Shown here: piece after piece, positions 4,500 to 28,969 of the stretch | How positions within the stretch are numbered: the first letter of the stretch is position 1 | Layout of the letters: each line of letters opens with the position of its first letter | DNA from: a virus | Virus record (IMG/VR): IMGVR_UViG_3300005287_000001 | Length of the DNA stretch: 28,969 nt | Strand: one strand, 5' to 3' | Translations under genes and position numbers: made by a program | Notes under the pieces: generated by a model | What the model saw: only the letters and a program-made list of their open reading frames with translations | Told to the model about the DNA's origin: nothing | Database searches by the model: none

Positions 4500-4505
4500 T
4501 CGGCA

Positions 4506-4513: not shown

Positions 4514-4540
4514 ATAATAATATTTGAACTGGCAATACTA

Positions 4541-4559: not shown

Positions 4560-4582
4560 AAAAGGCAGATCTTCACAGACCC
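4557..4582 (-). terminator. Weak hairpin plus T7 after the holin gene; putative end of the late operon
   Basis: Minus strand reads GGGTCT-GTGA-AGATCT, a 6-bp stem with two G-U pairs, then GCC and TTTTTTT. Confidence 0.35.
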
Positions 4583-4649
4583 ACCCTCTAGATAAATTTT
4601 ACTGAAATTGCTGCAAAGGTAGTCAGAATAATCTGAACTGCCAAAGCAT

Positions 4650-5320: not shown

Positions 5321-5423
5321 TTTAACTAAAGCTTTACGACCACTTACTGTTGTGCATCGGATAGTGCTGTTATAAGAATAGATATATCTGAACAGTTATC
5401 AAACACCACACTACTAACCTTTG

Positions 5424-5714
5424 TTATTGCCAGCAGTTTATCCTACTTATCAGATAAAACACTACACTTATAACATTATTAGTAGAAATATCAATATTAT
5501 TGTCAGCAGTATACTCAATACCACCACCCGATCCAGTATAGGATATAACACCGTCAGTGATATTAATACTATTACCAGCAGTATAAGTAGTGTCCTTAGC
5601 TGAAATTGTACCATCTTTAATTGTTATATTGTCCCCAGCAGATTCTGCAGATATGACATTATTTAGTATGTCTGCTGTATACTTAGTATCTGTTGCTGAT
5701 AATCTGAGGAAATA
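5424..5714 (-). pseudogene. Fibre-repeat fragment with no start codon; possible remnant or unconventional cassette
   Basis: An open frame of about 97 codons follows TAA-TAT-TAA. It encodes ...AGDNITIKDGTISAKDTTYTAGNSINITDGVISYTGSGGGIEYTADNNIDISTNNVIS..., paralogous to TLTAGDNITITDNVISATGGGTEYTAG in 18744..20831. It has no ATG, GTG or TTG start. Confidence 0.35.
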
Positions 5715-5720
5715 TTAATA

Positions 5721-5846
5721 TTATTCCCTACTTTGTATAATGGTATTAGAAGAATCATTACCTTCTGTACCATCATAGTCTGTTACCTAGTAAGATCCAA
5801 TTTCACTGAAATCTAATCTAGATAATGCTATTGCTATTCCACTCAT
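5721..5846 (-). CDS. Small hypothetical ORF, 41 aa, with 1 TAG
   Basis: The ATG at 5844-5846 lies 6 nt after the tail-fibre TAA. It ends at TAA 5721-5723, in the same frame as the fibre-like fragment that follows. Confidence 0.25.
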
Positions 5847-5851
5847 ATTAA

Positions 5852-8800
5852 TTAACTATAATGTAGAGATTTATAATAACTATACAGATATGGATATGTA
5901 TCAACATTAAGCTTATTGCCATCTATATCACACAAATAATATTTAGAACCCTCTTTATAGAAATAGTATTCATAAGTAACACCCTTCTTTCCAGAAGTAT
6001 ATTGCCACATTTGAACAGCATAAATTGTCTTAGATGATGATCCTATTGATTCACTATACTCCAATACAGCATAATGTCTATACCAACCACTCAACGATGT
6101 TAGAGAATTCAAATCAGATGATGTGATATTATTAGCTGTCTTAGACGATTTGGCTGTGTATGCTCGACCATTATAAGTTGATGGATTAGAGTTACCACTG
6201 ATTCGGTATGTCTTAACAGAACTAACCTACTTATAACCTTCGTTGAATTTATAGTAGGTAGATGTGCTACCTATCTTAGATCCATAAATATCAGCACTAC
6301 TAATCTGATTGCTGGATAGTGAAACATCAGATATTGGATAAAGTGTTGTTATTTCTGACCAGCTATTATCCTTAGCTTCAACATAATAGGTAATTCCGTT
6401 TGGCCCTAAATCATATAAGACTTCACCATTCTATATAAACTGTAGGATAGCATTACCAGAACTATCCACACCAATCTGTATATTAACAGAACCATCAGTA
6501 CCTGCAACTTGCATCAATCCATTCTATAGAGTGATTGTAGCAGAACCAGTAGTAGTTAGTTTGTTAGCCTCAACAATATTGGTATTCAATTTACCTTCGC
6601 TGTTTAATAAGGCTGTCTGTGTACCACTATTATTCTATACAACAACCGTATCTGCTGTAAGTGTTATCTTTCGATTCTCTATATCTATACCAGTTTCTAG
6701 AGTTAGTTTCCTATTCAATATAACCTCTGGCGGAACCATAAATCCAGTAAGTACTCCAAAGTCTGCAACATACCATCTTCCTACTACACCAGTAATACCG
6801 TATGCCCAATTTAGTGTACAAATGCTATCATAAGCAGAAGTAAACGTTACAAAATAAAGATACCAACCATAACCTAGAGAAATCTTATCTGATGAATTGG
6901 TAAGTCTGTTGTAAGAACCAGAATCATCTGAACTATAGCAACCAGCAGTTAAGGTTGTAGATCTACTATTATAAGGCTTAGCAATAACATAGTATGTTAT
7001 AATAGATCCATTATAATCATCATATATATATGGTGCAACAGTTGTGCCCTATGCATAGGCTGCTGTCTCACTAGTTGCTGTATAATATAGATTACGATAG
7101 TGCCAACCAGTTTCTGTATCCTTAGCCTTTGTATTAGTTACTCCAGAATCCTAATGACTGAACCAATCACCAGTAGCAAACGGCTGTACAATAAGATTGT
7201 TAGTTTCTAATGAATAATCACCTTGTGCGAATCCCCAGTCAGTTGCAATCTGACCTTCCTCCAACTGTAACCAGTGAATCATATAACCACTACTATTCGT
7301 AATTGATAAGGTCACATAACCAGTTGTTGAGGCTGTATATGTGCTACCATTACTAAGTGAAGTACCATTCAGTTTAGTTGTAATAGTTCCTGCAGCAGAG
7401 TAAGTATAAATATACGTTGTACCACTCTCTATATAGACTTGTCTGGTAATAGATTTAATACTACCACCAATCAGAGATTGTGGGATTATATTATTAAACT
7501 CAGTGAGCTTACCAATCTTAGCTGAAATCTTATCAGCTGTCTGTGTTATAGTAGATACACTATTTTCCAGAGTTGTCTGTTTATTAGTAAGTGTATTAAT
7601 TGATGTTGTATGACTGCTAACAGTAGAGGACAAACTATTTGCTGTAGCTTGTACACTAGCAATATTAGTTTTATTGGTTTCAATATTAGTTTTATTAGTT
7701 GCAATATTAGATGTATTAGTTGCAACATCATCCTCCAGATTATCAACATCACTATTTAAACTGCTAATGGAAGAAGTATGGCTAGCAAGTGTTGCCTAAA
7801 TACTAGTATCAGTCTATTGTAATTTAGATATGTTAGTTTCATTGCTAGTAACTCTTCCATCTAAGTTAGATATGGAAGTAGATTGACTGCTTACTGTTGA
7901 GGACAAACCATCAACTGTTGCTTCCAAAGATGTCTGTTTATTGGAGATGTTAGTAATTTCTTCTGTATTACTGCTAACATTACCTTCCAGATTGTCTATA
8001 TCATTTTCACAAGCAGATATTCTATTCTCTAATTCAGTAGTATCAATTCCACCTATGTCTATAGACAATTCACCATTAGCTGTCCATTTGATTTTACCAC
8101 CAGCTAATTGGCCAGAACCATCTTTATTAAATTCCCACATACTATTAAGGTTACGCATTGCACCAGTTAAGTATGCATTCTCAGCATATAATCCTTGTCC
8201 TTCCAGAGTTGTACCATTCCATACAATACCCTCCAAATTACCGATTCTCACATTAGTTGGAACTGTTCCACCAGTAGAATCTACATCAGCAAGTACACTC
8301 TCACTGTTAAGTTGTTTCATAAAGTCTATGTAAGCACCATCATAAGGATTCAATTTAATAATGGTCTATCTGTTCTCATCAGATTTATTACCAATCCTTA
8401 TTAAATACTTATTCACAGCACTATCTGGATCAACTGTAGTCCAAGTGGTTTCACCTCTATCATTAGTAGAAGATCCACCAGTAAAGCCAGTATTTGGAGT
8501 TACTCTAACTGTATTGTCACCATCTTTATTAACTGAGACCACCAATCCTTTAAATGACCATATCTAAGTCTCAGAAGCCTTATACTGTAATTGTACATAA
8601 TCATTAGCTACAAATGGAGGATATTCATTAATAGTAAATATCCACTCATCACCATCTTTTGTAACCTTCTCTATCTATCCAGTATCTGTTACTAACAAGA
8701 TACCATTAGTTGCTCTCATCTCATTATATGTAATCACATAAACATCTAGGTTGCCATTTACTTTAACATTACTGAACTCTGCAGTACCATCATTTTGTAT

Positions 8801-9571
8801 GCGCCAGCCATTACCACTACCACTAGTAAATGATGGACTACCTATATCTAGACCAGTGCTTATGTAATTACTACTTATTCCTAATGCTACATTATTTGCT
8901 TTATCAACAATATAGAATCCATTTTCAACTACAGACTTTATTTCAGTTGGATATTCGGATTCTGTACCAACATATATCTTAGTACCAGAGGTTTTATTAA
9001 CCATATCCAAATCATTCCATATAGATGTTGTATCATCATTTACTGCAAACACATCAGTTTTGTTTGGTACAATATGGAACGTTTGGTCTGTGCTGCCAGA
9101 TATATTTAAGCAGTGATTTTCATCCTCATTGATACCCCAACAGTCAAATTGGAAACCATTTTCCAAAGTAAGCTCATCCACCTTTAATTGAGAAACATCA
9201 ATCGTTTCAGATGTAAGAGCTGTGATATTTGCAGAATCAATATCTAATGGTTCTGTAAGTGTAAGATTACTAATAGTAGCACTTACTATATTTGCATTCT
9301 CTGCTGTAAGTATTCCAGTAAAGTTTGCATCAATACCAGTAAGTGTACCAGTAATATTAGTCTCACCTAAATTAGCTATTGCTGCTGTAAGTTTATCTGT
9401 ATCTATTGAGTAAGCCGTTAATGTATTAGTTGTAATCTTCTCACTACTAAATTTAGTTGAATAACTGCTACTGCTAGATGTATTGGCATTAAATTTAGAT
9501 GTGGAAGAAGTGCCAGAATTACTACTACTGCTACTTCTGGCACTCACCCTTATATTAATTAAATCACTCAT
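5852..9571 (-). CDS. Giant tail fibre / receptor-binding protein, 1239 aa, with 11 in-frame TAG codons
   Basis: One frame joins track fragments 8675..9571, 7814..8353, 7151..7633 and 5852..6112. TAG codons start at 8675, 8564, 8366, 7814, 7796, 7151, 7049, 6635, 6524, 6431 and 6227. No TAA or TGA occurs inside. The central region has Ser/Thr/Asn-rich heptad coiled coil. The ATG overlaps the upstream TGA (ATGA), and the stop is TAA at 5852-5854. Confidence 0.8.
7659..7722. repeat. Three tandem 21-bp repeats inside the tail-fibre gene
   Basis: caatattagttttattggttt / caatattagttttattagttg / caatattagatgtattagttg. They encode 7-aa repeats (TNKTNI-type), in frame. Confidence 0.7.
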
Positions 9572-12252
9572 ACTTCTTTTAAAGTTATGGTTGAAGATGC
9601 CATTCTCATATCTGTATTAATAGACAAAGGATAAAATGTTTTACCTAAATATCCGATAGTATAGGTATTGAATGGACTAACATTAATAGTATTATTATCT
9701 AGTGTTGTTTCAACTATTATCTTAGGAGTATTGAACTCTTTATAATAGTGATCAACGTATAGTTTCTCAGCATAGGCTGTTATGCCTTCATTATTATCGG
9801 TAAGGTTCTTAAAGGCTGAATTGTCACTAACATTAATTGCCGTTGATATATTAATCGTCGGGGCTGCAACACCTAATTCATAAGCCTCAGATGCACTTAA
9901 AAGAGTATTGATATTAAATTCAACATCATCTTTCTTCTTTATATATTTGTCCGTTTCATCTGAACAGTAAACAATATCAGCATCCCCATCATTTTCTATA
10001 TTACCATTATCGCTAACAATCTTACATTCAAAGTCCTTTATAACAATAGCACTGATGTTGTCTAGTACATTCTTACTGTTGGCATAAAACTTAGTGCTCC
10101 TAAACATAGTTGGATGTCTCCTCCACACAGTAACGAACTCACTATTTACTGGAGCAATTATACGGAATTCTAATTGTCCATATAAATCAGAAGGAATAGC
10201 AATTGCAGTACCTTCATTATCTCCTAAATTCATACTGTCTGTAATGTTGTTAGAGATGTCAAATTTGTTACCAACTATGTAGTCACCAATATTTGGATCA
10301 TATCCTAAAGAGAATGATGGTATTGCTTCCTCAACAACTGATGCATCTGCTGTACCACTAGTTTTAGCTGTTTCCCATTCTTCCTTAGTCATCCATTTAT
10401 AAGTACTGTCATATCCCCAAACCTTATTACCATCACTGTCTAATGTATAGTTACAAAGTTCTACACAGTACTTATCACCAACCTTTAATTGGCATTGTAA
10501 AATACCTATCTTACCAATATTATCTGATACTGAACCATCGCTGTTATAAGCATATTTCCAAGTATCATTTTTCCAATCTTCATCTGGATCAGAGAAATAA
10601 AACCTATCTAAATAATATGGATAATTAGTTGGATGTCCAGAAGTAAGTTTATTAGTACCAGTACTGTCATAGAAGTAAACTCCATAACGACCATTACCAG
10701 AACCTTCTCTGTTATTGTCTACAACTGACCACCAACCATCAGTATACCAACTATGATTTAAAAGTGGTTGCAACATCATCTCACCACTAAAGACAAAATA
10801 GTTAGTTGCATCATCACCACCAATCTGTCCCCAAGCTGCTGCTGTGGTAGATTTGTAAACTATAATACCAGTATCCTCTTCAACTGCTTTATTATAAATA
10901 GTCTGGAGGTAATTACCAATTTCAGCAAACTTAGTTTCACTATCATCACCACTACCATTAACTGTAATAGTTATATAATTCTCCATACTATCTGGAGCTT
11001 TATAAGTAGTAGATGAAGCAGTACCAGCCTTGTGTTCTGTATGTCCCCACTTAGCTAAGAAAGGACAATACTTATAATTCTGTACCTAATCATAAAAGGC
11101 AAGGCTGTCAGTACTAAGTGTTCCGTTATAAACTGATTTGAAGTTTGAACCATCAAAGTAATTGAAGTCCCAACTAGCATTATAGGCTAATTTTGTAAAG
11201 AAGTCTGTTGCTTCTTGTGCATCATAGCCATCATCATAGTCATTCATCATCCAGTTATGGAAACCACTATTAGATGATTTACCTTCACCAAATGCCCATA
11301 TTTCAGTCATATATCTCTTCCTGCGAGGCCATAAAGATGTAACTGAATCATCATCCATTGGAGATGAAATAACATCTTCTATAGACTCTAATTTATCTGT
11401 AACTGCTATCTGATTATAAACATCAGCAACAGAAATATCTGTATCATCTGACATATAATCATTAACAGTAACGGTTAAGGCTTCTGAAGTAAGTGTAGAA
11501 GCAGTATCTCCTCTAAGAGTAATCCAACTAATGTTGTTATTCTTTACACTGTTCCAATCAAATATATAGAAGTCCTTACCTTCTTGTATAATATGTAAAT
11601 TAAGGAATTTAAGGATCTCTTCCAGTAATTCCTCATTTGTATACATATCATCAAAATCCTCTCCTAAAAAGAGGTTTTCAGAAACACCAACAGTTGTAAA
11701 GACATTCTCACCATTATTAGTTTTAGAACCATCATAATAAATACAACCGTCAGTATCACCAAATATAATATCTAAATAATCATAGAATGACCTAACTTCA
11801 CTATCAATTTTTCTGGCATTATAAGCACTTTCATTTGATGCTAGATAGTTGTATTCCAGAGTTGCCAGAAAATCGGTACAGTTAATCTTTATTGAATTGT
11901 ATGTTTCACTATATGGCTGTGTATAGACATTAGGTTCTATATGGCCATAAAAGACTACTGTATCTCCTTTAGAGACCGTTACTGTAGTATCTGATGGCTT
12001 ACCAGCAAACAAATAGTCACCTAACCATTTAGTACTATAAAATTCAATCTCTGCGGATTTCTTTATTATGTGTGTGAAGTTATCCTCACATTCTGTTTCT
12101 ATCTGTAACGGATCATCGCTGAAGTAGCACATAACATTACCATCGGAATCAGTTGTTTCCTCAAAGGTAATGTTAGTGCCTACAGCTGTGGATTCAATAA
12201 CTACAGTTACTAAATCATCGTTAATGTCTTTAAAACTACCAGTTATTTTCAT
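9568..12252 (-). CDS. Distal-tail / baseplate-hub protein, 894 aa if the single TAG at 11086 is read as sense; equals track ORFs 11086..12252 plus 9568..10986
   Basis: Both ORFs are in the same frame. They are separated only by TAG (11086-11088) and 33 open codons. The position directly after the tape measure matches the Dit/Tal slot. The ATG overlaps the TMP stop, and TGA is at 9568-9570. The function is assigned by synteny only. Confidence 0.55.
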
Positions 12253-15176
12253 TATTTTATTCCAGTATTTTTACCTACTGTTCCTTTTACTTTACTATAA
12301 TTTCGTAGTGCCATATATAAGTCAGAACCTTTAATCCTAACTTCACCACCTACAACTCCTCCAGTACCACCACCGTTGTCCAGTATGTTCCAGAGGTTAG
12401 CTTGCTGGCCTTTAGTAAGTACAGCTTCACCACCGTTTACTCTAATTAGATTTTGGTCACCTACAAATCCATTGCCATTAACAATACCACCATTAGCAAA
12501 TGCACCAGATATAGAAGCAATAGCTGCTATAACTGCAGCAACACCCATTGCTATAGCTACTATGTTCATTGGGAAAGGCATACTAGAACCACTAGCAGTA
12601 GCACCAGAAATACCCTTAGCTGTATTAGCTGCAACTATTGTACCAGCATTAGCAACCTCTTGTTGTGCATTTTGATTCTTAACCTATTGGTTAGCTGTTT
12701 CAGAAGCTGTCAGCATATCAGTAGCCATCTTTACTGTATTCATTATAGTCTATACAGATTGTAAAGTAGTAGTAACCACACCTACAACACTAGTAAAGAT
12801 CTCCCAAGCACTAGCACCTTCTTCTATTGCAGATACCATATTGGAAACTGAACTACCAATATTATCAATGGCACTAATAGAATCATTAAGATTATCTAAA
12901 CTTAGCCCTTCTGTATCAATCTCCAGTTTTAATGGTTCTAGACCTTCCTTCTGGAGTATTTCATTAATTTTAGCTAGTTCAGCCTCTGCCTATTTCTTAT
13001 TAATGCTACCAATCTATACATCAGTTTGTAAATTAGATACTGCTGTCTATGCATTACTATAAATTTCTCTCTTATTTTCCCTAGTTTGTTGTGGAGTCTT
13101 TACAGTAACAGTTGGAGAAAGTTGATTAAACATCTTCTACATCTCCTCCTTAGTTGGCATTTTAATCTTAGGTGTTACAACTGGCACTAGAGATTCAGCC
13201 TTAATAGACTTTTCTAAATCTTCTTTAGCCTTCTTTAATTCATTAATCTTACTTTGTAAGGTAACAGAAACTGACTTATCTGCAGATGCATTAAGTTGCT
13301 TAGATAATTTAGATATTTCTTGTGAATACCAATCTAGTGAACCTTGTGCTGCAACATCAGATTTCTTAGTAATGCCTTTGGATTTTCTACTAGAAGGTTT
13401 ATTATTGTTGTCAGAAACTACATCAAGTTTATTTGTTAAACTTTTGGCAGCCTTCTTTATTGCATCAATTCTCTTTTGTATATTAGCAGCAACTGCTTTA
13501 TCTGTAGTTTTATTAAGTTGTTTATAAAGCTTGTTTAGTTCATTACTATACTACTGAAGCTTTTTTGTTGATGGATCCTTAGTCTTATCAGTGGTATTGT
13601 TGTTTTGCGTCAGGCGTTTATTGTTGTCTGCTTGCCTTTTAAGATTGTCTGCCATTTCCTGTGCGGCCTTTTTCGCCAATTGGTCTTCCGTTCCTAATAA
13701 CTTTCGAACAGGGGCAAATGCTGCATTGGCTGCTCTGTTAATACTATCAAGCCAATCAACAACTGTCTTTAACCCATTTACAAGCTTTGTAACAGCTTTA
13801 ATAGCTCCAACCTTTATATCTGATACAAACTCATCCCAACCTTTACCAGACACATCAAAAAGGCTTATGATTGCTCTCTTTAAATCTTCGGTAGCATCCA
13901 TCTGTTCTTTGGCAAGTCTTACTCCTTCGGGTGCGTTATCGTAAAGTTCCTGCATATTACCCTTAATATCCTTAATGGTAGTTAAGAACTGATAACCTGC
14001 GTCTTCACCCGGACCTCCGAAAATGTCTGATATAGCCTGTCCAACCTCTTGTGCCTGTGGTGACATTTCTGACATTTTTTGACTAACTTGTTTCATTACA
14101 TCAAAAGTGGTAATAGAACCATCAGCTAAGCCCTTCATAACCTTCTTTGAATCAATGCCGATTGCGTCAAGTGCCTTTTGTACTGCAGGTGACATTTCTC
14201 TAATTCGGATATTTGCTTCCTTAATGGAATCTACTGCCTTATCACTAACAATACCTTGCTGCTGACTTCGGATTATTGTTGTAGATAGTTCGTCAATACT
14301 CATCCCTGCTTCTTTTGCGTAGGTAGAGTACTCCTCCATTTGAGATTTGTACTCATCCTTATCAACGGCAAGGTTTAAACCATCCTATATTGAATCTGCT
14401 GCTTCTTGAAAACTTACACCCATCTGTCTCGCAACAGTGTTAGCCGTCTTAACAACGTCATCCATACTCATACCAAACTGCTCTGCTGTTGTTTCGCAAG
14501 TTGCTCTAAAATCTATAAGGGCTTGACCTCCAAGTCCTGTGAACTGTTGAATGGCCTGATTTGCTTTTGAACTCTCAGCATTGAAGTCTACAAAAGCCTT
14601 TGCACCTGCTATAACACCTGCTGCAACTGCAGTAATACCAGCACCTTTAATCATCGTACCACTAAGTTCTGGCATTTTAAAGTCCTTCACACTAGCCATA
14701 GATGATTGTAGGTTCTTACTAAATGAGGTTATATCTCCACTCTTTAAAGAGCTGATCATATTAGATATGGAATTACTAAGATCGTCTACAGATGATTTTG
14801 CACTATCCATAGCTTCCTTAGTTTCACTAGCAATCTTACTCTATATATTAGTATATCTTTGTAATTCACCAACTAAAGTTTTATAAGCACTACTAGTTTC
14901 CTTACCTTTATCAGCTAAGTTGGCAAGTTCTTCTTTGATATTCTTTATTTTACCTTGTAAAGTCTTGCCAGAACCTCCTAATGCCTATAAATACTTTCGT
15001 ATTTCTTTCTCATTATCACCGACTGCATCGGTTACATCATCCAGATTGCCCTTTAATTTTTTAAGACCAGCTCTTTCAGATGCATTATTAAGGTCTTTTA
15101 TGTTATTGATGGCATCTTTTATACCACCAGAAAATTTACTGGTATCTAGTACCAGTTCTTCCTTTAATTGTCCCAT
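12252..15176 (-). CDS. Tail tape measure protein, 974 aa, with 10 in-frame TAG codons
   Basis: One frame joins 14985..15176, 14385..14810, 13551..14339 and 12252..12581. I checked every intervening codon. TAG codons start at 14985, 14841, 14385, 13551, 13137, 13047, 13014, 12990, 12750 and 12684. There is no internal TAA or TGA. The product is alpha-helical and Ala/Lys/Gln-rich with a Gly-rich C-terminus. TAA at 12252-12254. Confidence 0.85.
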
Positions 15177-15810
15177 TATATTATACCCTTAGATTTAAGT
15201 AATTCTTCTCTTTTCTTAGCTTTTGCAAGCATCTATTCTCTCTTCTCTTTGGTCATTGTTACTTTAGGGAGGTGCGGAACTTCTTTGTCCCAACTAAATT
15301 GTATAATATCTTTGGGCTTTAGTTTCTTTTTAGAATTGGCTTGTGCAAGTATGTAGCAGATAGACCTAGTTTGTTCCCAGTCCTCTCTGACTGAATATCC
15401 CATCTTTTTTATAATAGGTTCTAGTTCATATCGCTACATCTTGTCCATAAAATACTCTACCGAAACACATTTATATTGTAGGCAAAGTAAACACATTAAG
15501 TCCGTAAACGTAATTACTTCGCCATCCCTTTTTTTTCTGCTTGTTCTCCCTGCTGTAAGCTCTTGCTACTATCAACTACCCATTGATTAAACTTAGCAAA
15601 CTGATCTGGATTACTGTCCAACCAGTCTAAGAAATCATCAAACTTCAGTTCAATGTCTGGATAATTAGCTAAAATCACCGCAAACATATAAGTAATCATA
15701 TCTGATACTGTCTGTGGATTAAACATCTTACTTGTTATAGTTTCATATATAATATATGATCTGAACTTATTTTTAAGTTCTAATTCGTTACCGTTAATTG
15801 TTATTTTCAT
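15176..15810 (-). CDS. Tail assembly chaperone GT-type fusion made by -1 frameshift; the T part has 2 in-frame TAG codons
   Basis: After the A8 run the -1 frame stays open for about 118 codons (KKRDGEVITFTDL...KREELLKSKGII). It runs to TAA 15176-15178, which overlaps the tape-measure ATG. TAG codons are at 15434 and 15233. Confidence 0.6.
15514..15810 (-). CDS. Tail assembly chaperone (gpG-like), 98 aa
   Basis: It lies between the major tail and tape measure genes. It is acidic, with a slippery run near its 3' end. TAA stop and no TAG. Confidence 0.7.
   Translation of the reverse strand: MKITINGNELELKNKFRSYIIYETITSKMFNPQTVSDMITYMFAVILANYPDIELKFDDFLDWLDSNPDQFAKFNQWVVDSSKSLQQGEQAEKKGMAK
15529..15536 (-). 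promoter_or_regulatory. Slippery A-run (A AAA AAA G) for -1 programmed ribosomal frameshifting
   Basis: The zero frame reads GCA GAA AAA AAA GGG, 5 codons before the chaperone stop. The -1 frame is open downstream. Confidence 0.6.
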
Positions 15811-15874: not shown

Positions 15875-16339
15875 TCAACCGTTTGTACTAGCAGTGGTTT
15901 TAACTAATGCACCTACACCGTTGAAGGATACACTGTAAGTAGCCAGTTCACCGTTACCTGCTGTCATAGATATACTAGAGATAACTGCTTTACCAGAATA
16001 CATATCATTGCTGGAAGTCCAACCACCTTCTGGTACGATGTGTCCATCATCATCTGGATCTGTCGTTTTATCTTTATTAGCTACAGTAGCAAATACGAAG
16101 TCCAAAGACTTACCAGCTAACATAGCATCTACTAATTCAGTGTAATCTGCTACAACCATAAGGTTATCACTAGTAGCTGACCAGCTCATTTTACCTCTCT
16201 TGGTAGCTCCCCACTGTCCCGTATCTTTACAACTGATGTCAATATCATCAGAGTTGATTTCTACACTACAAGAAGTAGCGCAACCTAAAGTTTTACCACC
16301 CAAGAATACTTGGATGTCTTCACCCATTAAATTAGCCAT
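15875..16339 (-). CDS. Major tail protein (TP901-1/phi13-like)
   Basis: 154 aa, in the expected position. The pattern GGKTLGCATSCSVEINSDDIDISCKD...WSATSDNLM is typical of this family. TGA stop and no TAG. Confidence 0.75.
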   Translation of the reverse strand: MANLMGEDIQVFLGGKTLGCATSCSVEINSDDIDISCKDTGQWGATKRGKMSWSATSDNLMVVADYTELVDAMLAGKSLDFVFATVANKDKTTDPDDDGHIVPEGGWTSSNDMYSGKAVISSISMTAGNGELATYSVSFNGVGALVKTTASTNG

Positions 16340-16345: not shown

Positions 16346-16729
16346 TCAAAAAATTATATTTGTTTCAAATGTTAGAGTTTGAATATATGCATCTTCTATA
16401 AAATTTTCCACCACTCCAGTAAGATAAATCCTACCAAAGTAATCATCTCTATGTAATTCTAATATCTTCCTTATTCGTTCAGCTATTGTAGCCGTTTCAC
16501 TATAGTTCTTAGAAGCTATAGCTATAGAGAAAGTAATACTATCCTTTACTACATTAGTTTTAGTATATTCTGTACTAAGAGAATTTCTAGTAAATATGAT
16601 AAAAGGATAGCTTACTGACTCTTCTGCCACAATAGGGAAAATATTATTACCTACTAATTCGGATAGTTCACTATCTTCTTTTAGTAAGGCATATAAGTAT
16701 TTATTAAAACTAAGACCAGTAACTTTCAT
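16346..16729 (-). CDS. Tail completion / tail terminator-like protein
   Basis: 127 aa. It lies between the neck genes and the major tail gene. TGA stop and no TAG. Confidence 0.55.
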   Translation of the reverse strand: MKVTGLSFNKYLYALLKEDSELSELVGNNIFPIVAEESVSYPFIIFTRNSLSTEYTKTNVVKDSITFSIAIASKNYSETATIAERIRKILELHRDDYFGRIYLTGVVENFIEDAYIQTLTFETNIIF

Positions 16730-17175
16730 TGATTATATTTTTTATATATTTTCTCTATAGCATTTTCCAAATTAGATTGTAATGACTGCTCCACTAGTTG
16801 TGAGGTATCAGCAACTGCTTTACTAAAGAAGTGTGTTGCCTCCATCTTACCTCTATACTGACCAGATTTATTATAACGACCGACTGTTCCGTTTTCAAAG
16901 AACTTTAATTTAAAATTGCCTTTATTGGAATTACTGATAATCTCAGTTCTTCCAGATAAACCACTTTTACTTACTTTTACTATTACACCACCCTATAGTG
17001 TTAGACCCCATTTATCTGGCTTATTATATGCGGTAGTTACTCCCATAAGGTTCTGAACAGCCTTTCGTTTAATAATATTTAGAGATTGTGTCATTCCAGA
17101 TCTGATAGCTGGTTTTAGTTTTTCAACTTCAATAGCCTTTAGAAATTGCTCTAATTTTCTACTGTCTAATTTCAT
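16726..17175 (-). CDS. HK97 gp10-like neck protein, 149 aa, with 1 in-frame TAG
   Basis: The 16993..17175 fragment continues through the TAG at 16993 to TGA 16726-16728, which overlaps the next ATG (ATGA). Assigned by synteny and size. Confidence 0.55.
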
Positions 17176-17489
17176 TCAGTAATCAGTTCTGTAGTTATTA
17201 CTTTCTTGTTCTAGTCCTTTACTGGCTCAATTGCCAGTATTCTGTATTTCTTAGAATCCCATTCTATATAATCTGTTTCAATAACATCTACATAATAGTA
17301 TACCTCAAATGTCTTATTGTATATATAAACTAGAGCATTATTCTCTGTCAATCTGTTTCCAGAATTGTGAATAATTCTTGCTCTAGTTGTGACATTCAAA
17401 GCGTACTCTTGTACCTACTCACCATAGTCATTCTAAACTGTAGTTGTTCGGTATATATTTATAATATCAGTCAATAATCCTGCTCTCAT
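17172..17489 (-). CDS. Head closure / head-tail joining protein, 105 aa, with 3 in-frame TAG codons
   Basis: Product is MRAGLLTDIINIYRTTTV(Q)NDYGE(Q)VQEYALNVTTRARIIHNSGNRLTENNALVYIYNKTFEVYYYVDVIETDYIEWDSKKYRILAIEPVKD(Q)NKKVITTELITE. This is the typical Phage_H_T_join pattern. The TGA at 17172-17174 overlaps the next ATG. Confidence 0.7.
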
Positions 17490-17514: not shown

Positions 17515-18741
17515 TTAACTCTTTACCAGTATTGCTTTACCCTCACTATCAGTAGATTCGGTAAATGTATATCCAGCATTAGATAATCTGGCAATCAGCC
17601 ATTCTTTGGTTGTGTCAGAACAGTTGGTAACATATACAGTTGTCAATAAGGTACAATGGTCAAACATATATGTATAGTTAGTAACTGCTGTGCTATCAAA
17701 ATTATCCAGATGTATAGTTTTTACTGCATAACAGTAACGGAACATACTATTAGTATTAGTAAGTACTGATGAGGCTAGCCAACTAACATCTATATCCTCT
17801 ATAGACTGCCAATTATAATGCATACCACCAACAATAGTTGCAACTGTATTCTATGTGGTAGGTGCTGAATAACTAGTAATTTTCGTAAATCCAGATAGGA
17901 AGCTACTAAAGTTAGTGCTTTGTGATACATCCCATTTACTAAGATCTAAAGATGTAATTCCAGTATTGTTATTTAAATCTAGGAACTGTTCAAAGGTAGT
18001 AACCTTAGAAGTATCAATTTCACCTATATTTAATTCCTTTAGACTGTTGCACCTATAAAAAGCTCTCTTCATATTGGTTACTGCTGAAGTATCCATACCA
18101 TTAAGTGTAACTGTTTCTAGTGCAGAACACTCATTACACAAATAGTTTAGTGTAGTATTAGAGGAAGTGCCAGTAAATCCAGATAAATCTAAGTTCACTA
18201 ATGAGGAGCAAACATTAAACATAGCATCCATAATAGTAACTGCTGTTGGATTCCATCCAGTTAAATCTATAGATTTTAGAGATTTACAAGACTAAAACAT
18301 CTGACTCATATTAGTAACCTTAGAAACATCCCACATAGATAAATCTAAGGAAGTTACTTTAACACAATTATTAAACACCCTATACATATTGGTTACATTA
18401 GAAGTATCCCATCCAGTAAAGTCAAAATTAACTAAAGGAATATTACCAGTATTGTCATTAAATATTCTATCCATAGTTGTTAGATTGCTGGAATCACAAT
18501 ACTTTAACCAACTCATATCATAGGTTTTAGTGGTATCAAATGCGTTATTAGTCCACCTAAAATTCCACTAATTAGGTAATACAATACTAGGTGGTGCAAT
18601 ACCTTCTATAGAAGTAACCTTATCTGCATAGCTTCTAAAAGTGTCACTGTCAGAAACAGTAACACCTTTATTAACTAATGCCTCTTTTATCGCTGTTTTA
18701 GTATCATTTAAATATGATAACTTTTCCGATATAGTTCCCAT
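17515..18741 (-). CDS. BspA-like leucine-rich-repeat (26-residue surface-protein repeat) protein, 408 aa, with 3 in-frame TAG codons
   Basis: It joins 18292..18516, 17851..18231 and 17515..17823 in one frame, with TAG codons at 18568, 18292 and 17851. The repeat F..C..L.SLDLS.WDVS.VT.M..MF recurs. The N-terminus is MGTISEKLSYLNDTKTAIKEALVNKGV. TAA at 17515-17517. Confidence 0.75.
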
Positions 18742-18743: not shown

Positions 18744-20831
18744 TTAAACCTCCTCACCATTAATTGTATCCAACAGAGTAGATATATTACCAATAGTACT
18801 TTCAATCTCAGTTATTTTGGCTGTAATAACCTTATTCTGTACTGGATTCTCTGAAGTATCAGATAGTTCGGAATCTACAGTAACAGAACCTCCTCCACCT
18901 TCAGAGATAACCTCTTGAAGTGATTTAGCAGAATCCCAATTGGTGCCGTCATAATCACCAATACCTTTTATATAAGTGTAACCGTCTGCCATTATTTGAA
19001 GAACATTGCTTCTTGCGTTAATAGAACCATCACCTATTGTAAATTTAGTACCGTTGTGGGTAGTATCTGAGCCACTTGTTACAAATTTATTGTACTGTCC
19101 CAATGCAACTTCCGCTTCATTTACAGCATAATTATCCTCACCTATTGCAACTGAATATTTACCTGTTGCTTGGTTACTTTGTCCTATTGCAACTGACGGC
19201 TGACCATTTGCGGATGCAGAATTACTCATACCAATGGCCGTTGAGGCATAACTATTTGCAGCATTAGAATATCCAATAGCCGTTGAGGCATAACCATATG
19301 CCTTATTACTACTACCTATAGCAGCACTATATTGACCACTAACAGTATTATAACTTCCCAAAGCATAGGTGTAATCGTAGGCCTGTCTATTATTATTGTA
19401 TTCACCAATCATATAACTATAAGCACCTGCTTTATTGTTGTAACCTGCTGCAAAACCATATTGACCACTTACTGTGTTTGAGCAACCTATGGTTGCACCA
19501 TACATTGCACTGATGGTATTGTTACGACCTGCTGCAAATCCATACTCACCACTAACGGTATTTGACTCACCGCCAACAAGAGCTTCTGATTCAGATACTT
19601 TATTGCTTGTGCCAAATACAGCCGAATAACTACCCTTTGTTATGCTATTATCGTAACCTGCCACAAAATTTTGGTAAGTATTGGCCGAAATGGTAATATT
19701 ACTGCCAAAAGCTGCTGATGCCTTACCTTCAACTGTATTGTCACAATCTACTTCAGTACCACTCCAATGGGTGTAAGTACCTTTCATCTTTATTGAACAG
19801 TCACCATCATTAACCAAATTAAGAGTTGAGTTAATAACATTATCATCTGTTATTTCTAAAGAAGTTCCTGCGGTATATTCTGTTCCACCTCCAGTAGCTG
19901 ATATTACATTATCAGTAATAGTAATGTTATCACCTGCTGTAAGTGTGTTTTGCTTAGCAGCCAACAACTCATCTGTAGCTGTTTTATTATAGTATTGTGT
20001 AGGATCGAATGTTCCACCTCCTGCAACTTTCTCATCAATAGTAGCCTTATCATAAGTATATTCTGAAAGGGCTGTACTATCTATATAATCACCAGCATCC
20101 TATTTATTGGCTAGTGCTGTATTTACTTCTGTCTTATATTCAGTAAAGGTAGTATCTGTTACATAATCACCTTTATCCTATTTTGTATCTAGATCCTCTT
20201 TAGTTGCATAGCCATCTAATGACTAATGCTCTGTAAGATAGCCAGCATCATTAGTAAAGGCAGATACTTTAGTAGGAAAATCTGTAATATCTGTAGTTGT
20301 ATGTGTATGTTCTAAGGCTGCTTTATTATTAAGTACAGCCGTTATAACTTTATTTTGAACTGGATTTTCAGAGGTTTCTGACATCTCATCATCAACTATA
20401 CCTCCACTATTCTCCAATGCTGTAACTCTCTAATCTAAACTATCTTCAGCAGCTAATGCTCTAGCTATTTCTGTATCAATTGCCTTCTTTAATTCTTCTA
20501 AATCAATTTCGCCAATATCAGTAGTATCGCCAGTTCCATAATTTCTGTAAAGATCTATAAGGAAATTATAACTGTTTGGAATCTCTACTGCTGTCGTATA
20601 GGCTACTGATTCTCTGTTGGCATAATAGTTACCCACCAATAAAAGTAAGGCTTGTTTCAGAGGAGCAGGAATGTCACCTTTATCATCCTCCAAATCAGTT
20701 AAATATACATTAAGATGCTTAGCAATAGCACCTTCACAAGCCAGAATTAGGGCTGATATGTAATTATCATCTTCTGTAAATGTATCATTTATATTAAGAT
20801 GTTTTTTAACTTCATCAACTGTTATATACAT
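18744..20831 (-). CDS. gp6-like head-tail connector domain fused in frame to a fibre with YadA/Hep_Hag-like repeats, 695 aa, with 4 in-frame TAG codons
   Basis: The N-terminal ~103 aa read MYITVDEVKKHLNI...DIPAPLKQALLLLVGNYYANRESV...LIDLYRNY, which is the Phage_connect_1 pattern. The same frame continues with no TAA or TGA through TAG codons at 20430, 20223, 20178 and 20100. It then enters a coiled coil, HTH..DI fibre motifs and SVAIG/STAIG repeats. TAA at 18744-18746. Confidence 0.65.
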
Positions 20832-20912: not shown

Positions 20913-22130
20913 TCAATTTTCTGCAATAGTCTTAGCTACGATAGCTTCTGCTCTACGAGGTTTAGCATCAAAGTAAGCATTAACAACCAAGCGAACTTCG
21001 CCTTGATCAGCGAGTGTATAAGGATCAACTGTAAGGTCTATAGCACCCCACTGTGCAATTACATAGTCAGCAAAATTACCAACTACAATACCCTTAGCAC
21101 CAGCAGCTACATAAGCAGGAGTACCATCAATCTCACCATTCTCAAAGATCATACCAGTGTTGTTAGTACCCTTAATAGTGCTACGAAGAGTAGCCTTTAC
21201 AGATGGACTAACAATATAAGTATAGTCACCAAATACTTTGTTGTTCTCAAGTTCAGCCTCTAATTCACAAATATCCTTATAGTCAGCACTAATTGAACCA
21301 GCACCGTTAAAGATACCTGCAGGTTGGTTAGCTGTACCAGCAGCATCACCTAAGATAGTAGCTTGGAGCTTGTCTGTGATAGCATTTATAATATCTCTAC
21401 GCAACATCTCATCAGCAGCAGCAGAATCTTGGATCAAGAATTGCTTTGATACGTTAATCTTAGTTGTAAGACGTTTTGGGGTAAGTAATACTTCACCAAA
21501 TTCTCCTGCACCATCGTCAGCAGCTTCAATTTCACCCTTCCAAGTAGCAGATGTTCCAGCATAAGTAGGTATAGAAACATCACCAACAAGTCCAGTAAGT
21601 ATAGTAGCACCAGCTTTAGCAAGTACTAAGTTATCTCTTAGTGGATCGAGGATATTCAATTTTTCCTCTGCAACTACTTCTTGTCCAGCCGTAGCAACTG
21701 TAGCTTGTACATCAGCTCTTTCCTCAACTGGCAACTGTATTTGGCCATTGAATGAAAGGCCAGATTTACGCATTTCTGCTTTACCAACGTTAATTACTGC
21801 TTGTGCAGACTCGTCTAATTGTCTTTTATCAGCTATACTGCGAATAGCTTTTACTAATGAAAATTTATTCATACTTCTTTCCTCTTCTTCTTCTTTTTCA
21901 GCCTTTTCTTCAGTAGGCTCTGGTTCGTTATCGTCTTTCTTATCTAATTCTTTGTCAATCTCAGCAATTTGTTCTTTTATTTCTTCCAACTCAGCTTGCT
22001 CTTCCTCGTTTAATTCTCTCTCCTCTGACTGAGCAGTGCTAAGTAATTCGTTTGCGTCTTTGATAAGTTGCTCTTTCTTATCAATAAGTTCTACAGTATT
22101 CATACTGCGAAATGAAACTTTCTTCTTCAT
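20913..22130 (-). CDS. Major capsid protein, HK97 fold, with an N-terminal acidic coiled-coil (scaffold-like) region
   Basis: 405 aa. It follows the prohead protease. The N-terminus is Glu-rich. TGA stop and no TAG. Confidence 0.9.
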   Translation of the reverse strand: MKKKVSFRSMNTVELIDKKEQLIKDANELLSTAQSEERELNEEEQAELEEIKEQIAEIDKELDKKDDNEPEPTEEKAEKEEEEERSMNKFSLVKAIRSIADKRQLDESAQAVINVGKAEMRKSGLSFNGQIQLPVEERADVQATVATAGQEVVAEEKLNILDPLRDNLVLAKAGATILTGLVGDVSIPTYAGTSATWKGEIEAADDGAGEFGEVLLTPKRLTTKINVSKQFLIQDSAAADEMLRRDIINAITDKLQATILGDAAGTANQPAGIFNGAGSISADYKDICELEAELENNKVFGDYTYIVSPSVKATLRSTIKGTNNTGMIFENGEIDGTPAYVAAGAKGIVVGNFADYVIAQWGAIDLTVDPYTLADQGEVRLVVNAYFDAKPRRAEAIVAKTIAEN

Positions 22131-22138: not shown

Positions 22139-22729
22139 TTATTTAACTAATAAATTCTTTCGTAAATTAGAGTAATATTCAGCAAGTTTTATCTTGCGTA
22201 ATTCTTTATTCTCAGCTTCTTTTATTAAATCTAGGCCTCTAGTATCTACAACAACACTAGTAGCGTCATAAGCAGCTCTATAAACTGGTGAAACATCAAA
22301 CAATTCATTAATATGTGTTATGATTCGTAAGTAAGAACCATCATCTTGTTTCTCCCATTTGTCCTCTGCAACAGTAAATGCAAAACTAGATGTAGATATA
22401 TCACCCCTTTTAACACCTTCTAGTAATTCATCACCTAATGCAGTATGTGGTGCTTCAAACTTATACATAAGTCCTATATCGTCTATACTTAAAGATAGAC
22501 TACCAACACCTTGTTTAGATCTTGCAAGAACACCCCTTTCTTCATTATGGTCTAATAAGGCCAGTACATCCGATTGATCTATAACACCTTCTAGAGCTGC
22601 TGGATCTATAATCTCAATAAATCCACCTAAATCATTAGATGGAGTATTAAATACAGCAGCATAACCACTAATCATACGGCTATCTACTGTATCCAATCCA
22701 ACATCACCAATATTTCTTTTTTCTATCAT
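22139..22729 (-). CDS. Prohead serine protease, HK97 family
   Basis: 196 aa with ...SGYAAVFNTPSNDLGGFIEIIDPAALEGV...LLDHNEERGVLARSK.... TAA stop and no TAG. Confidence 0.9.
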   Translation of the reverse strand: MIEKRNIGDVGLDTVDSRMISGYAAVFNTPSNDLGGFIEIIDPAALEGVIDQSDVLALLDHNEERGVLARSKQGVGSLSLSIDDIGLMYKFEAPHTALGDELLEGVKRGDISTSSFAFTVAEDKWEKQDDGSYLRIITHINELFDVSPVYRAAYDATSVVVDTRGLDLIKEAENKELRKIKLAEYYSNLRKNLLVK

Positions 22730-26140: not shown

Positions 26141-26299
26141 ATGAAAACAAAAAAATCTGGATTTGTTGGTGTAAGATTAACACCTCATTAGGAGTTTGAA
26201 CTATCAAATATTGCTAGAGAACTCAATTTAAGTAAGAGTTAGGTAATCAGATGTAGTATTGATAACCTAATAGAATCATATTATAGCCCTATAGTGTAA
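26141..26299 (+). CDS. Small ribbon-helix-helix-like DNA-binding protein, 52 aa, with 2 in-frame TAG codons
   Basis: Product is MKTKKSGFVGVRLTPH(Q)EFELSNIARELNLSKS(Q)VIRCSIDNLIESYYSPIV. This is a beta-strand then helix-helix pattern of CopG/MobC type. TAA is at 26297-26299. The last 15 nt overlap the tRNA. Confidence 0.5.
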
Positions 26300-26359
26300 A
26301 GGTTAGCACCAATATCTCTAAAATATTAGGTCTCAGTTCGATTCTGAGTGGGGCAACCA
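26285..26359 (+). tRNA. Amber suppressor tRNA, anticodon CUA, reading UAG
   Basis: Hand-folded cloverleaf.
- Acceptor stem: 26285-26291 with 26349-26355, six pairs including one G-U; position 1:72 is A-A.
- T at position 8.
- D stem: GTGT/GCAC, with GG in the D loop.
- Anticodon stem: AATAT/ATATT. The loop is CT-CTA-AA, with the anticodon at 26318-26320.
- Variable region: 4 nt.
- T stem: CTCAG/CTGAG, with loop TTCGATT.
- Discriminator A, and an encoded CCA. Confidence 0.85.
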
Positions 26360-26370: not shown

Positions 26371-26532
26371 ATGAACAGAACAGAAACTTTTATAGAAATG
26401 TGTGAGGCAACAATAAATATGGCAAAATTAGTAAAGAAATTTGCCGTTGATTATGGCCTGCAAGATAATCCAATTTATATAGATTACCAAGATCAACTTA
26501 ATAACCTAAGTGTAGTTTATGAAGAAAATTAA
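26371..26532 (+). CDS. Hypothetical protein, 53 aa
   Basis: The ATG at 26371 lies 12 nt after the tRNA. Product is MNRTETFIEMCEATINMAKLVKKFAVDYGLQDNPIYIDYQDQLNNLSVVYEEN. TAA stop and no TAG. Confidence 0.4.
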   Translation: MNRTETFIEMCEATINMAKLVKKFAVDYGLQDNPIYIDYQDQLNNLSVVYEEN

Positions 26533-26998
26533 AAACTGGGATAGTTATAGACGTAAATAGTGTAATATAGAAAAAGCCGTTTACAACCCAGAAGTAAATA
26601 ATCTAATACAGAAAAATTATATACCATTATACCAATCTTTAGTAAAGAATGAATGGGATTTGACCTATTTTTAGGATGCTTTCCTAAAGATAACACATTA
26701 GTACAATCCAGAAGAGGATTTTGTGTAGCAGTTTATACATCTTTTCAAGATAATGAAAGGTGGTTGTATCAGAGATGATAATGCATTACTAAAGATAAAT
26801 CAAGAAGATATGTCAGTTTATTCTGGATATAATGATGTATATGTAAAGTAGAATGGTAATGAAGTACTATTGCCATTTAGTTTTGAACAAGAAGATACAG
26901 TAGTAGCTAAAACTAATAATAAACTAAAGGATGCCTTACTTAAAGAAAGCAGAGAAGCCAAAAATAAGAAGCGACATAAAACGCAAAACTAGGAATAA
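26519..26998 (+). CDS. Hypothetical protein, 159 aa, with 6 in-frame TAG codons
   Basis: The ATG at 26519 overlaps the previous gene's end. TAG codons are at 26558, 26672, 26699, 26726, 26849 and 26990. TAA is at 26996-26998. The 3' end overlaps the HNH start by 68 nt, so the true end or the HNH start is uncertain. Confidence 0.45.
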
Positions 26999-27314
26999 GA
27001 TCTACACCACCGCTAAATGGTCTAATTTGCGTAAAAGTAAACTAATGTTCAATCCTTTATGTGAATTATGTCTGGCACAGGGTAAAGTAACTCCAGCTAC
27101 TGATGTTCACCACAATTATTCCTTCCTAAACATAGATGGTAGTATAAACTATGATAGATGCTATGACTATGGAAATCTAATTAGTTTATGTCACTAGTGC
27201 CATTCAAAAATTCATAAATAGTATGGCCGAACAGAAGGAGAGGTAGGAAATCTAATATATGCCTTAAATAGAGAAAAAGAAAAAATTATTTCAGAATCAG
27301 AAGGACAAAAATAA
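26931..27314 (+). CDS. HNH endonuclease (packaging-associated type), 127 aa, with 2 in-frame TAG codons
   Basis: The track ORF 26931..27197 ends ...NLISLCH at a TAG. Read-through gives LCH(Q)CHSKIHK(Q)YGRTEG..., which completes the HNH C..C / H motif. TAA at 27312-27314. Confidence 0.85.
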
Positions 27315-27854: not shown

Positions 27855-28969
27855 ATGAAAGAATTTATTATTGAAGGTGGAAATCACCGTTATTTAAGTG
27901 AATTAAAAGAATTTCAAGATGGTCTACCAGTTGGTGTAATAAATAAGACTAAACCAGATGTTGGCGGTACTTACACAGCAGCCAATTGTGATAGTAATTA
28001 CATTATTGTATGTCCCTTTAGGGATCTAGTTGATAGTATATGTGCTGATACAAATAATAAATATCCAGTGCTGAAGGTTTATCAAGGAGTAAAAGAATCT
28101 GACTTTACTAAGTATATGCAAAGTACTACGGTACATAAAATTGCTGTTACTTATGATAGTTTTAGTAGTAAAGTAATAAAGTGGATTAGTAAGTATGACA
28201 ATACCAATAACTGGAAAGTTCTAATTGATGAGTACCACTTAATTTTGGAGGATATGGATTATAGAGAGGATGCCATAGTAAATCTAATAGAGAGTGTACA
28301 CAGTTTCAAACATTACTCTTATTTGTCAGCAACTCCAATTAATGTGGATCTGGAAATAGATGAGTTTAAGAAATTGCCACATTATACAGTAACTTGGAAT
28401 AATGTAAGGAATATTTCGGTACAGAGAATTAATTGTTCTCAACTTACTAGAAGCGTCTTAGCCGTTCTTAATTCATTCATAGATGGAACACTAAGTATTG
28501 GTGGTATTAAGGTTGAAGAATTATTTGTATTTTGTAACTCGGTAACCTTTATTAAAAGACTGCTGGAGACTTTGGAAGTAGAACCAGAGGATGTAAAAAT
28601 CTGCTGTGCTTACAATAAAAGGAATGTACAAGTTCTTAACCGTTATCAAATAGAACCAATAACCAATCCTAATAAAAGATTGAACTTCTTTACTAAGAAA
28701 GGATTTCAAGGATGTAACCTATTTAGTAATAATGGACTAGTAATGGTTATTAGTGATGGCAACAAAGAAAGTACTTTAGTAGATATATGTACAACTATGG
28801 AACAGATTGCTGGTCGTTTGAGAGAGAATGAGAAATACCACAATATTTTTGGTAATGTAATGTTTCACTTCTATAGTAATGTCAAATACAATCTTACTGA
28901 TGAACAGTTCAATAAGATTATGGAGGACAAAATGGATAGAGCAGAAATCTTAATTAGTGGTTATAATAA
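27855..28969 (+). CDS. SF2 DExH helicase-like protein, N-terminal part; continues at position 111 of the window through the circular junction
   Basis: ATG at 27855. I read every codon to 28969 and found no stop. Motifs are KPDVGGTYTAAN (degenerate P-loop), VLIDEYH (motif II, DExH) and YLSATP (motif III). It is missing from the supplied track because it has no stop inside the linear window. Confidence 0.75.
   Translation, partial: MKEFIIEGGNHRYLSELKEFQDGLPVGVINKTKPDVGGTYTAANCDSNYIIVCPFRDLVDSICADTNNKYPVLKVYQGVKESDFTKYMQSTTVHKIAVTYDSFSSKVIKWISKYDNTNNWKVLIDEYHLILEDMDYREDAIVNLIESVHSFKHYSYLSATPINVDLEIDEFKKLPHYTVTWNNVRNISVQRINCSQLTRSVLAVLNSFIDGTLSIGGIKVEELFVFCNSVTFIKRLLETLEVEPEDVKICCAYNKRNVQVLNRYQIEPITNPNKRLNFFTKKGFQGCNLFSNNGLVMVISDGNKESTLVDICTTMEQIAGRLRENEKYHNIFGNVMFHFYSNVKYNLTDEQFNKIMEDKMDRAEILISGYN

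Follow-up and report, generated by a model that had tools for sequence, protein, structure and literature searches.

A head–tail adaptor continuous with an adhesin-like fibre in a phage predicted to read TAG as glutamine

The 28,969-nt viral genome record IMGVR_UViG_3300005287_000001 (the window, as we call the whole stretch of DNA analysed here) carries a gene at 18744..20831 on the minus strand in which a head–tail adaptor (Ad1) domain is covalently continuous with an adhesin-like fibre, a fusion that is genuine and recurrent. From the N terminus onward, the product comprises the adaptor (residues 1–100), a linker-and-helix segment, the shaft of the fibre, a β-solenoid head of YadA-like type (~370–645) and a helical C-terminal module. 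Our overall account, which we regard as likely, is that the adaptor and a ~590-residue fibre are made as one chain with TAG decoded as glutamine, and that these chains would form trimeric neck fibres tipped by a leucine-rich repeat (LRR) protein, with a presumed role in accessory adhesion.

The frame opens with ATG, runs for 695 sense codons and closes with TAA, confirming the 695-codon open frame that an initial sequence-only reading of this DNA had described. All four in-frame stops are TAG, with no TAA or TGA interruption: the first, placed at 20430 by the same reading, is indeed codon 134 (20430..20432, minus strand), and the others are codons 203, 218 and 244 (20223-20225, 20178-20180 and 20100-20102, minus strand), each predicted to be read as glutamine. 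Under the standard code the region falls into fragments of 133, 64 and 407 aa, a split that public gene calls also show; an exact-protein look-up matched the 133-aa fragment and returned no match for the 407-aa C-terminal one. Two other metagenome records are 100% identical to the window over 13.1 and 9.7 kb, with no TAG/CAG polymorphism between them and the window, and this identity of three records means that the frame is not an assembly accident. A search of public sequencing runs gave no match.

Evidence for the adaptor (residues 1–100; 20532..20831, minus strand) comes from both profiles and predicted structure, and bears out the connector-domain identity first proposed from sequence. Residues 3–96 match PF05135 (Phage_connect_1; 57.6 bits, cut-off 21.2; E 1.8e-15), covering profile positions 2–101 of 101, and the domain matches PHROG_40, 'head-tail adaptor Ad1' (E 4.5e-21). 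A profile built on it finds the solved adaptors 9lbn gp5 (4e-7), 30yu and HK97 gp6. AlphaFold2 (AF2) was run on residues 1–133 and 245–695 separately, as monomers; the first model has a predicted local distance difference test score (pLDDT) of 91, and its best Foldseek match is HK97 gp6 (3jvo; TM 0.77, root-mean-square deviation 2.8 Å), with further fold matches to the phiXa adaptor 9lbn, YqbG and the gene transfer agent adaptor. No second PF05135 match occurs among the neck genes, leaving the fusion as the sole adaptor of its module. Residues 101–145 (20397..20531, minus strand) are modelled by AF2 as a flexible linker (~98–110; pLDDT 62) followed by an amphipathic helix (111–130 and beyond; pLDDT 95 over 111–130), presumed to be the start of a coiled-coil stalk. 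Stand-alone adaptor relatives terminate inside the region that matches the linker.

Beyond the adaptor, from residue ~106–132 on, the sequence has homologues among stand-alone fibres of phages, hundreds of them, which carry a Cys-rich N terminus (MGCCEPVL...) and often end in a Phage_tail_C tip. The shaft (residues 146–368; 19728..20396, minus strand) contains a first S.TSENPVQNKVI module (~150–170), an HTH element that resembles PTR, and modules of the type FTNDAGYLTEHQSL / TYDKATIDEKVAGGGTFDPTQYYNK common to such fibres. Its repeat is of the ...PTKVSAFTNDAGYLTEHQSL... type, likewise shared with hundreds of phage fibres; the 'HTH..DI' repeats of the sequence-only reading did not hold up as such, that element being present once and the true shaft repeat being of the PTKVSAFTNDAGYLTEHQSL type. 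The C-terminal module (residues 646–695; 18747..18896, minus strand) consists of a second S.TSENPVQNKVI motif, two helices (666–680 and 683–692 in the AF2 model) and an ...LLDTINGEEV end. The SENPVQNKVI motif earlier reported at the C terminus is therefore present there (660–669), but it is not confined to it, since another copy lies at ~153–162.

Between shaft and C-terminal module, residues 369–645 (18897..19727, minus strand) are predicted to fold as a left-handed β-solenoid of ~16–17 repeats of 14 residues, with pLDDT above 90. The SVAIG/STAIG block, already likened to a YadA head on sequence grounds, matches PF05658 YadA_head (28.5 bits, cut-off 25), and the best Foldseek matches in the Protein Data Bank are the trimeric autotransporter heads of BpaC, UspA1, CbpF, AtaA, EibD, BoaA and YadA (E from 1.7e-4 upward), so that this resemblance stands; the best viral fold matches are 'YadA-like proteins' of uncultured phages. 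The fusion protein has no match to the trimeric autotransporter anchor PF03895 or to PF05662, and a signal peptide and YadA stalk are also absent. Membership in the trimeric autotransporter adhesin family was rejected: with an adaptor N terminus, a helical C terminus and no anchor, the protein shares only the head fold.

We then asked how often adaptors of this family are extended. An exhaustive HMMER search yielded 914 relatives, and among the 150 best representatives the length is ≤115 aa in 102, 116–200 aa in 41 and more than 200 aa in 7, in agreement with the earlier view that the family normally stands alone; long fibres are present in some 4% of close relatives, and any extension of more than 40 aa in ~22%. 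Homologous fusions, which the sequence-only reading had suggested looking for, were found in six standard-code cases, all uninterrupted open reading frames (ORFs) with an N-terminal adaptor followed by a fibre: P0263 (491 aa), P0259 (467 aa), P0296 (335 aa), P0266 (315 aa), P0255 (309 aa) and P0269 (235 aa). Each adjoins the capsid gene, lying directly downstream of it, and several place Phage_fiber_rpt and PTR repeats straight after the adaptor domain. By tblastn against 50,697 GenBank phages we found no adaptor–fibre fusion, only stand-alone adaptors. The six closest IMG/VR relatives (43–56% identity) have adaptors of 98–108 aa that end in TAA or TGA, with the head-completion gene directly next. 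The closest relative at the genome level is a TAG-recoded contig in a Muribaculaceae metagenome-assembled genome bin, whose major capsid protein (MCP) is 53% identical, a hint of host that makes for a weak assignment; this contig encodes a plain 100-aa adaptor that ends in a real stop, and the next gene is that for head completion. Candidate hosts are Bacteroidales. Fusions in standard-code phages and a plain adaptor in a recoded relative together indicate that phages gain and lose the fibre cassette irrespective of their genetic code.

Among the eight fusion genes examined, we found no conserved stop, slippery site or other device at the boundary, and a programmed frameshift there was rejected for want of a conserved slippery site. 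At one locus only, that of P0255 (L014 3281-4210), a run of ~10 A at codons 101–103 coincides with the junction of adaptor and fibre, and the −1 frame meets a stop at once, making this a possible slippage site that could give a short adaptor. In a separate subgroup of adaptors of 155–190 aa (P0246, P0254, P0279, P0286, P0294, P0297, P0328, P0355 and P0388) the extension is short and helical, with a small element at the C terminus whose end reads G(D/E)Y; in L016, which has an adaptor of this type, the head-completion gene comes directly next. At L010 3482-5353 the prohead protease and MCP are called as one 623-aa ORF (Peptidase_S78 plus Phage_capsid).

Several lines of evidence bear on how the four TAG codons are read. 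A predicted suppressor tRNA with anticodon CUA is encoded at 26285..26359 on the plus strand (ARAGORN, anticodon cta; Rfam tRNA, 53.9 bits). Across 13 minus-strand late genes there are 51 in-frame TAGs, including six in TerL, five in the portal, ten in the tape measure and four in the M15 endolysin, and the terminators of all 17 late genes are TAA or TGA. Read-through of TAG alone joins fragments into genes of 1239, 974, 894, 695, 539, 420 and 408 codons. At positions aligned to standard-code homologues the TAGs correspond to glutamine: residues 439 and 293 of TerL (NATQWAI, YLRDQVQ), residues 221 and 230 of the portal (WNQA, KQQQD), and, in the fibre, residue 203, aligned to glutamine in 186 high-scoring segment pairs (YLTEHQSL), and also residue 244. 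TAG accounts for 22% of all glutamine positions in the late genes and for 4 of 19 (21%) in the fusion gene. Because of the tRNA, the 51 late-gene TAGs, the exclusive use of TAA and TGA as ends and the glutamines at aligned homologue positions, we read TAG as a glutamine codon genome-wide, and take the four TAGs of the fusion, like the other 47 of the late genes, to be ordinary sense codons decoded by the phage's own tRNA, with no boundary role.

The distribution of TAG also shows some unevenness. The late operon and the plus-strand genes diverge, and the intergenic region between them holds the tRNA gene; A1 and A72 of the tRNA are unpaired at the top of the acceptor stem, with A73 as discriminator. 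In the late operon, the MCP gene (20913-22130; 16 glutamine codons), prohead protease (22139-22729), tail tube (15875-16339), tail completion protein (16346-16729) and chaperone G (15514-15810) are TAG-free, while their neighbours use TAG at 8–75% of glutamine positions. This may reflect avoidance in the most abundant proteins; counter to that idea, the MCP of the recoded relative L017 holds four TAGs. Within the fusion gene, all four TAGs sit in the shaft and none of the 13 glutamine codons past residue 244 is TAG (permutation P 0.004, post hoc), a clustering that could point to a mosaic origin in which the head was recently gained from a standard-code source. On the plus strand, the ORFs at 788-1204, 26519-26998 and 26931-27314 look like real genes and hold 4, 6 and 2 in-frame TAGs, respectively; the first overlaps its neighbours by 8 and 4 nt and the last has HNH-type Cys/His motifs. 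Recoding therefore extends beyond the late operon. The integrase (2067-3662), the ORF at 1201-1809 and an ORF spanning the window's ends are, by contrast, TAG-free.

The C terminus of the fusion led us to the neighbouring gene. Its stop is followed after 2 nt by the start of a gene for a 408-aa DUF285/BspA-type LRR protein (17515..18741, minus strand; 3 TAGs; PF03382 E 6e-34, LRR_5 E 7.5e-11). To our knowledge, BspA-type LRR proteins are abundant yet unexplained in gut phage genomes. P0266, P0263, P0296 and P0180 share the C-terminal end type of the fusion, as do the proteins encoded upstream of the DUF285 genes of L020 and L023. Fusions ending ...LDxINGE.. (L007, L010, L011/L012 and L013) always have an LRR gene next, which either overlaps them or is separated from them by ≤4 nt, and the partner begins MGT(I/T)xDKLxY...TKxAIKxA..KGV...FRSYAxKI. 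A search from the DUF285 side, its loci gathered by a single-protein scan, recovered the same N terminus in L020 and L023, downstream of non-adaptor proteins ending ...LDKINGEVI and ...LDIINGEVV; P0180, an unrelated 629-aa fibre ending ...LLDTINGEEV, overlaps by 1 nt an LRR_5 protein that starts MGTTADKLNYIIATKEAIRKTIEAKGV. The paired C- and N-terminal motifs with tight spacing thus occur in 8 of 8 loci. In DUF285 loci whose proteins lack the conserved N terminus the pairing is found in 0 of 10, their upstream genes being unrelated, and an LRR partner follows 0 of 3 fusions with other C termini (L014, L015 and L016) and 0 of 7 stand-alone adaptors. If the loci are independent, 8/8 versus 0/10 has a hypergeometric probability of ~2e-5. 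These sequence patterns suggest that the LRR protein is a tip protein docked on the fibre end, the two forming a plug-and-socket pair. Gene pairs of a fibre followed by an LRR protein are also common beside stand-alone fibres: L018 has three successive pairs of a large protein and an LRR_5 gene (3986-13084), and at L020 3211-3501 the ...NPVQNRVI...LDKINGEVI module sits on a 94-aa protein upstream of a DUF285 gene. Together, L018 and L020 suggest that these phages use fibres and LRR proteins as a modular system.

How might such a protein be built into a virion? An Ad1 protein forms a 12-mer ring beneath the portal. We propose that the adaptor domains of the fusion would assemble this usual 12-mer, with the linkers letting the C-terminal parts exit the ring; outward from the ring would follow the linker, the helical stalk, the repeat shaft, the YadA-like head and the C-terminal helical module. 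Three neighbouring chains would join, giving ~4 trimeric neck fibres per virion rather than twelve, given that the adhesin heads homologous to this one are obligate trimers; by that analogy, twelve separate fibres, as the initial reading had imagined, seem unlikely, and four trimeric ones more plausible. The C-terminal ...NPVQNKVI...LDTINGEEV module would then dock the N terminus of the DUF285/BspA-LRR protein to form a distal adhesin. The neck assembly could serve as an accessory adhesin for host envelope glycans or gut surfaces, as has been proposed for lactococcal collar-whiskers, leaving committed binding to the conventional tail-tip proteins (9568-12252 and 5852-9571).

A broader reading can be framed tentatively, as one that we hold possible rather than probable. 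In it, a lineage of gut siphophages would carry adaptor-mounted adhesins, with three adjacent chains per fibre and, by a 12-to-3 symmetry step, four fibres per virion; these would present a conserved plug (...NPVQN.VI...LDxINGEEV) that takes interchangeable BspA/DUF285 LRR tips by their conserved N-terminal socket, the same pair would be used on tail fibres, and the neck would be a swappable site for binding host or mucus; in the TAG-recoded member, incomplete suppression could thin the fibres.

Several points weigh against our main account of the neck. The pLDDT of the shaft is low in the monomer AF2 model, and the trimer and the count of four come from homology, the models being monomeric. 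A 12-fold ring passing into 3-fold fibres is a symmetry mismatch without Ad1 precedent. The proposed neck position derives solely from the covalent link to the adaptor domain. As for the partner, the eight loci include kin (L007/L013 and L011/L012) and the motifs of L010 are weaker; the coupling of fibre and DUF285 gene is genomic adjacency and could reflect co-inheritance or a chaperone role. Finally, some truncated 133-aa adaptor could arise by incomplete suppression, although no feature sets the fusion gene apart in this respect.

The strongest alternative accepts the fusion and reassigns its purpose: the extension would be structural, bracing the head–tail joint or contacting capsid or tail in the manner of Bas63 whiskers or the Milano collar, and the DUF285 gene next to it would be unrelated, or its product a chaperone of assembly. 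Collar and whisker complexes of Bas63, XM1 and Milano have been proposed to strengthen the head–tail connection (PMC12609058, PMC10491603), and many relatives of the fusion have extensions of only 40–90 aa ending G(D/E)Y, a length that leaves a host out of reach. The distal domains here, however, are of adhesin type, a YadA-like head and a BspA-type LRR; the fusion shares its shaft, head and C-terminal modules with stand-alone tail fibres that have Phage_tail_C tips and LRR partners; and the cassette is dispensable in close relatives, as is typical of accessory host-range modules. We consider a purely structural role unlikely.

A second alternative, raised in the sequence-only reading, makes the first TAG a dosage device: termination at a leaky codon 134 would yield a 133-aa adaptor, and read-through a minority of adaptor–fibre. 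The first TAG does follow a complete adaptor domain, and a truncated product would probably be assembly-competent; the absence of TAG from the MCP, protease and tube may hint at costly or incomplete suppression, and a substoichiometric fibre load would ease the 12:3 mismatch. Yet the gene has four TAGs and the late genes 51, those of TerL (six) and the portal (five) included, for which truncation would be useless, and the TAG share of the gene equals the genome average. The position of the first TAG is also that expected by chance: the adaptor domain contains one glutamine codon, and the probability is 0.79 for no TAG in residues 1–103 and 0.17 for a first TAG in residues 104–134. TAG-134 carries the commonest +4 base (TAG-A) of the 51; the 90 nt downstream fall short of a significant fold (z −1.67, with 12 of 200 shuffles folding as well); and there is no conserved slippery site at the boundary. 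Position 134 is not conserved in homologues, and the MCP of the recoded relative L017 contains four TAGs. The case also differs from read-through of the Qβ A1 type, for which a single leaky stop conserved at the module boundary would be expected: here there are four TAGs, and relatives have sense codons or no boundary stop. The six standard-code fusions lack a boundary stop, so all 12 subunits there carry the extension, which removes the rationale for dosage. Taken with the genome-wide reading of TAG as glutamine and the real stop of the recoded relative, these observations do not support the device, and we judge it quite improbable.

Still less credible is the production of two proteins, an adaptor stopping at TAG 134 and a fibre starting internally, for instance at codon 150, the sole in-frame ATG nearby. 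A GGAGG does lie 16 nt upstream of that ATG, but the spacing is too long for a Shine-Dalgarno sequence, and the product would still need three read-throughs (codons 203, 218 and 244). Such a fibre would lack an anchor, while its stand-alone homologues carry the Cys-rich MGCCEPVL... N terminus, and in standard-code relatives the ORF is unbroken. Chimeric assembly, or a pseudogene joining an adaptor gene to a broken fibre gene, would fit the fragments of 133, 64 and 407 aa seen under the standard code and is the remotest option, effectively refuted by three identical records, by interruptions that are all TAG and never TAA or TGA, by the same TAG pattern in essential genes and by intact homologous fusions elsewhere. 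The preferred account remains that of one chain, running from adaptor to fibre end.

The genome around the fusion is that of a small, gut-type HK97-like siphophage, in the order TerS, TerL, portal, S78 protease, MCP, fusion, DUF285/BspA-LRR, head completion, Neck1, tail completion, tube, chaperones, tape measure and two large tail-tip proteins. The MCP gene (20913..22130, minus strand; PF05065 E 2.5e-25; no TAG) lies directly upstream of the fusion, and the head-completion protein (Phage_HCP; 17172..17489, minus strand) is the one that directly follows the adaptor in relatives without the fibre/DUF285 cassette. Positions 1-110 and 28860-28969 are identical (110 bp), and the genome is therefore complete, circular or terminally redundant, at ~28,859 bp (~28.86 kb). 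The ORF at 27855-28967 runs on into 1-795 as one large TAG-free gene spanning the end junction. A large serine recombinase with Resolvase and Recombinase domains (2067-3662, plus strand) suggests a temperate lifestyle, and the Peptidase_M15 endolysin (4904-5320, minus strand) has TAG at 4 of its 8 glutamine positions. For annotation, the lesson is that standard-code gene calling yields an 'adaptor', junk fragments and a 'YadA-like protein', masking the architecture of the fusion.

Reassignment of TAG to glutamine is already known in gut phages (Borges et al. 10.1101/2021.08.26.457843; Peters et al. PMC9523058). As in those code 15 phages, TAG occurs here in structural and lysis genes, alongside a tRNA-CUA and glutamine at aligned positions; the present phage differs in being a small (~28.9 kb) temperate HK97-like siphophage rather than crAss-like or jumbo, which is no essential difference. 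The adaptor likewise resembles the HK97 gp6/SPP1 gp15 type (PF05135, PHROG 40) in profile, fold, gene position between capsid and head completion, and status as sole adaptor, but that type is typically ~100 aa alone, whereas here ~590 aa of fibre follow. With YadA-type trimeric autotransporters the protein shares the 14-residue left-handed β-solenoid head, a fold common in uncultured phage fibres; those adhesins sit on the bacterial outer membrane, while here the head would sit on a virion adaptor, without signal peptide, stalk/neck or anchor β-barrel.

Known neck fibres and collars, among them the Milano collar and the neck passage structure (NPS) of lactococcal phages, are all separate connector-bound proteins (PMC6669499, PMC12609058, PMC10491603). 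The NPS of TP901-1 and the 936 group consists of dispensable neck fibres with carbohydrate-binding modules, and parallels our proposal as an accessory siphophage junction fibre with a ring anchor, a helical trimeric stalk and a distal binding module, patchy among relatives; it is, however, a separate protein with a BppU-like β-sandwich and a proposed 18-mer collar (6 trimers) round the connector (PMC6669499). Here the anchor would be the adaptor itself (12 chains), the distal part is a YadA-like head rather than a BppA-type carbohydrate-binding module, and the LRR partner has its own gene. T4 fibritin (wac), XM1 gp40, the Bas63/Sf14 collar-whiskers and phi29 gp12 are neck fibres too, often trimeric coiled coils, but they are separate products attached non-covalently or by disulfides, and none is a C-terminal extension of Ad1 (PMC12609058, PMC10491603). 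In the Anabaena myophage A-1(L), a pentadecamer is reported to anchor five neck fibres; as in our proposal, the anchoring oligomer sets the fibre number (ring size/3), although there the ring is a dedicated 15-mer of a myophage and not the 12-mer adaptor (PMC10966104).

In the literature we found no description of an Ad1 adaptor that itself serves as a fibre. What is new is not the recoding but the adaptor-anchored fibre, a novel Ad1 domain architecture, together with the fibre–LRR pair, which offers a testable rule for how BspA-type LRR proteins attach to virions. Where collars and NPS place their anchors (BppU-like, Ig-like or the wac N terminus) on a separate protein, here the anchor is the Ad1 domain. 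If true, the covalent adaptor–fibre fusion, seen in both standard-code and TAG-recoded phages, would be a different and very economical solution to mounting neck fibres, and would raise the structural question of how a 12-fold ring feeds 3-fold fibres.

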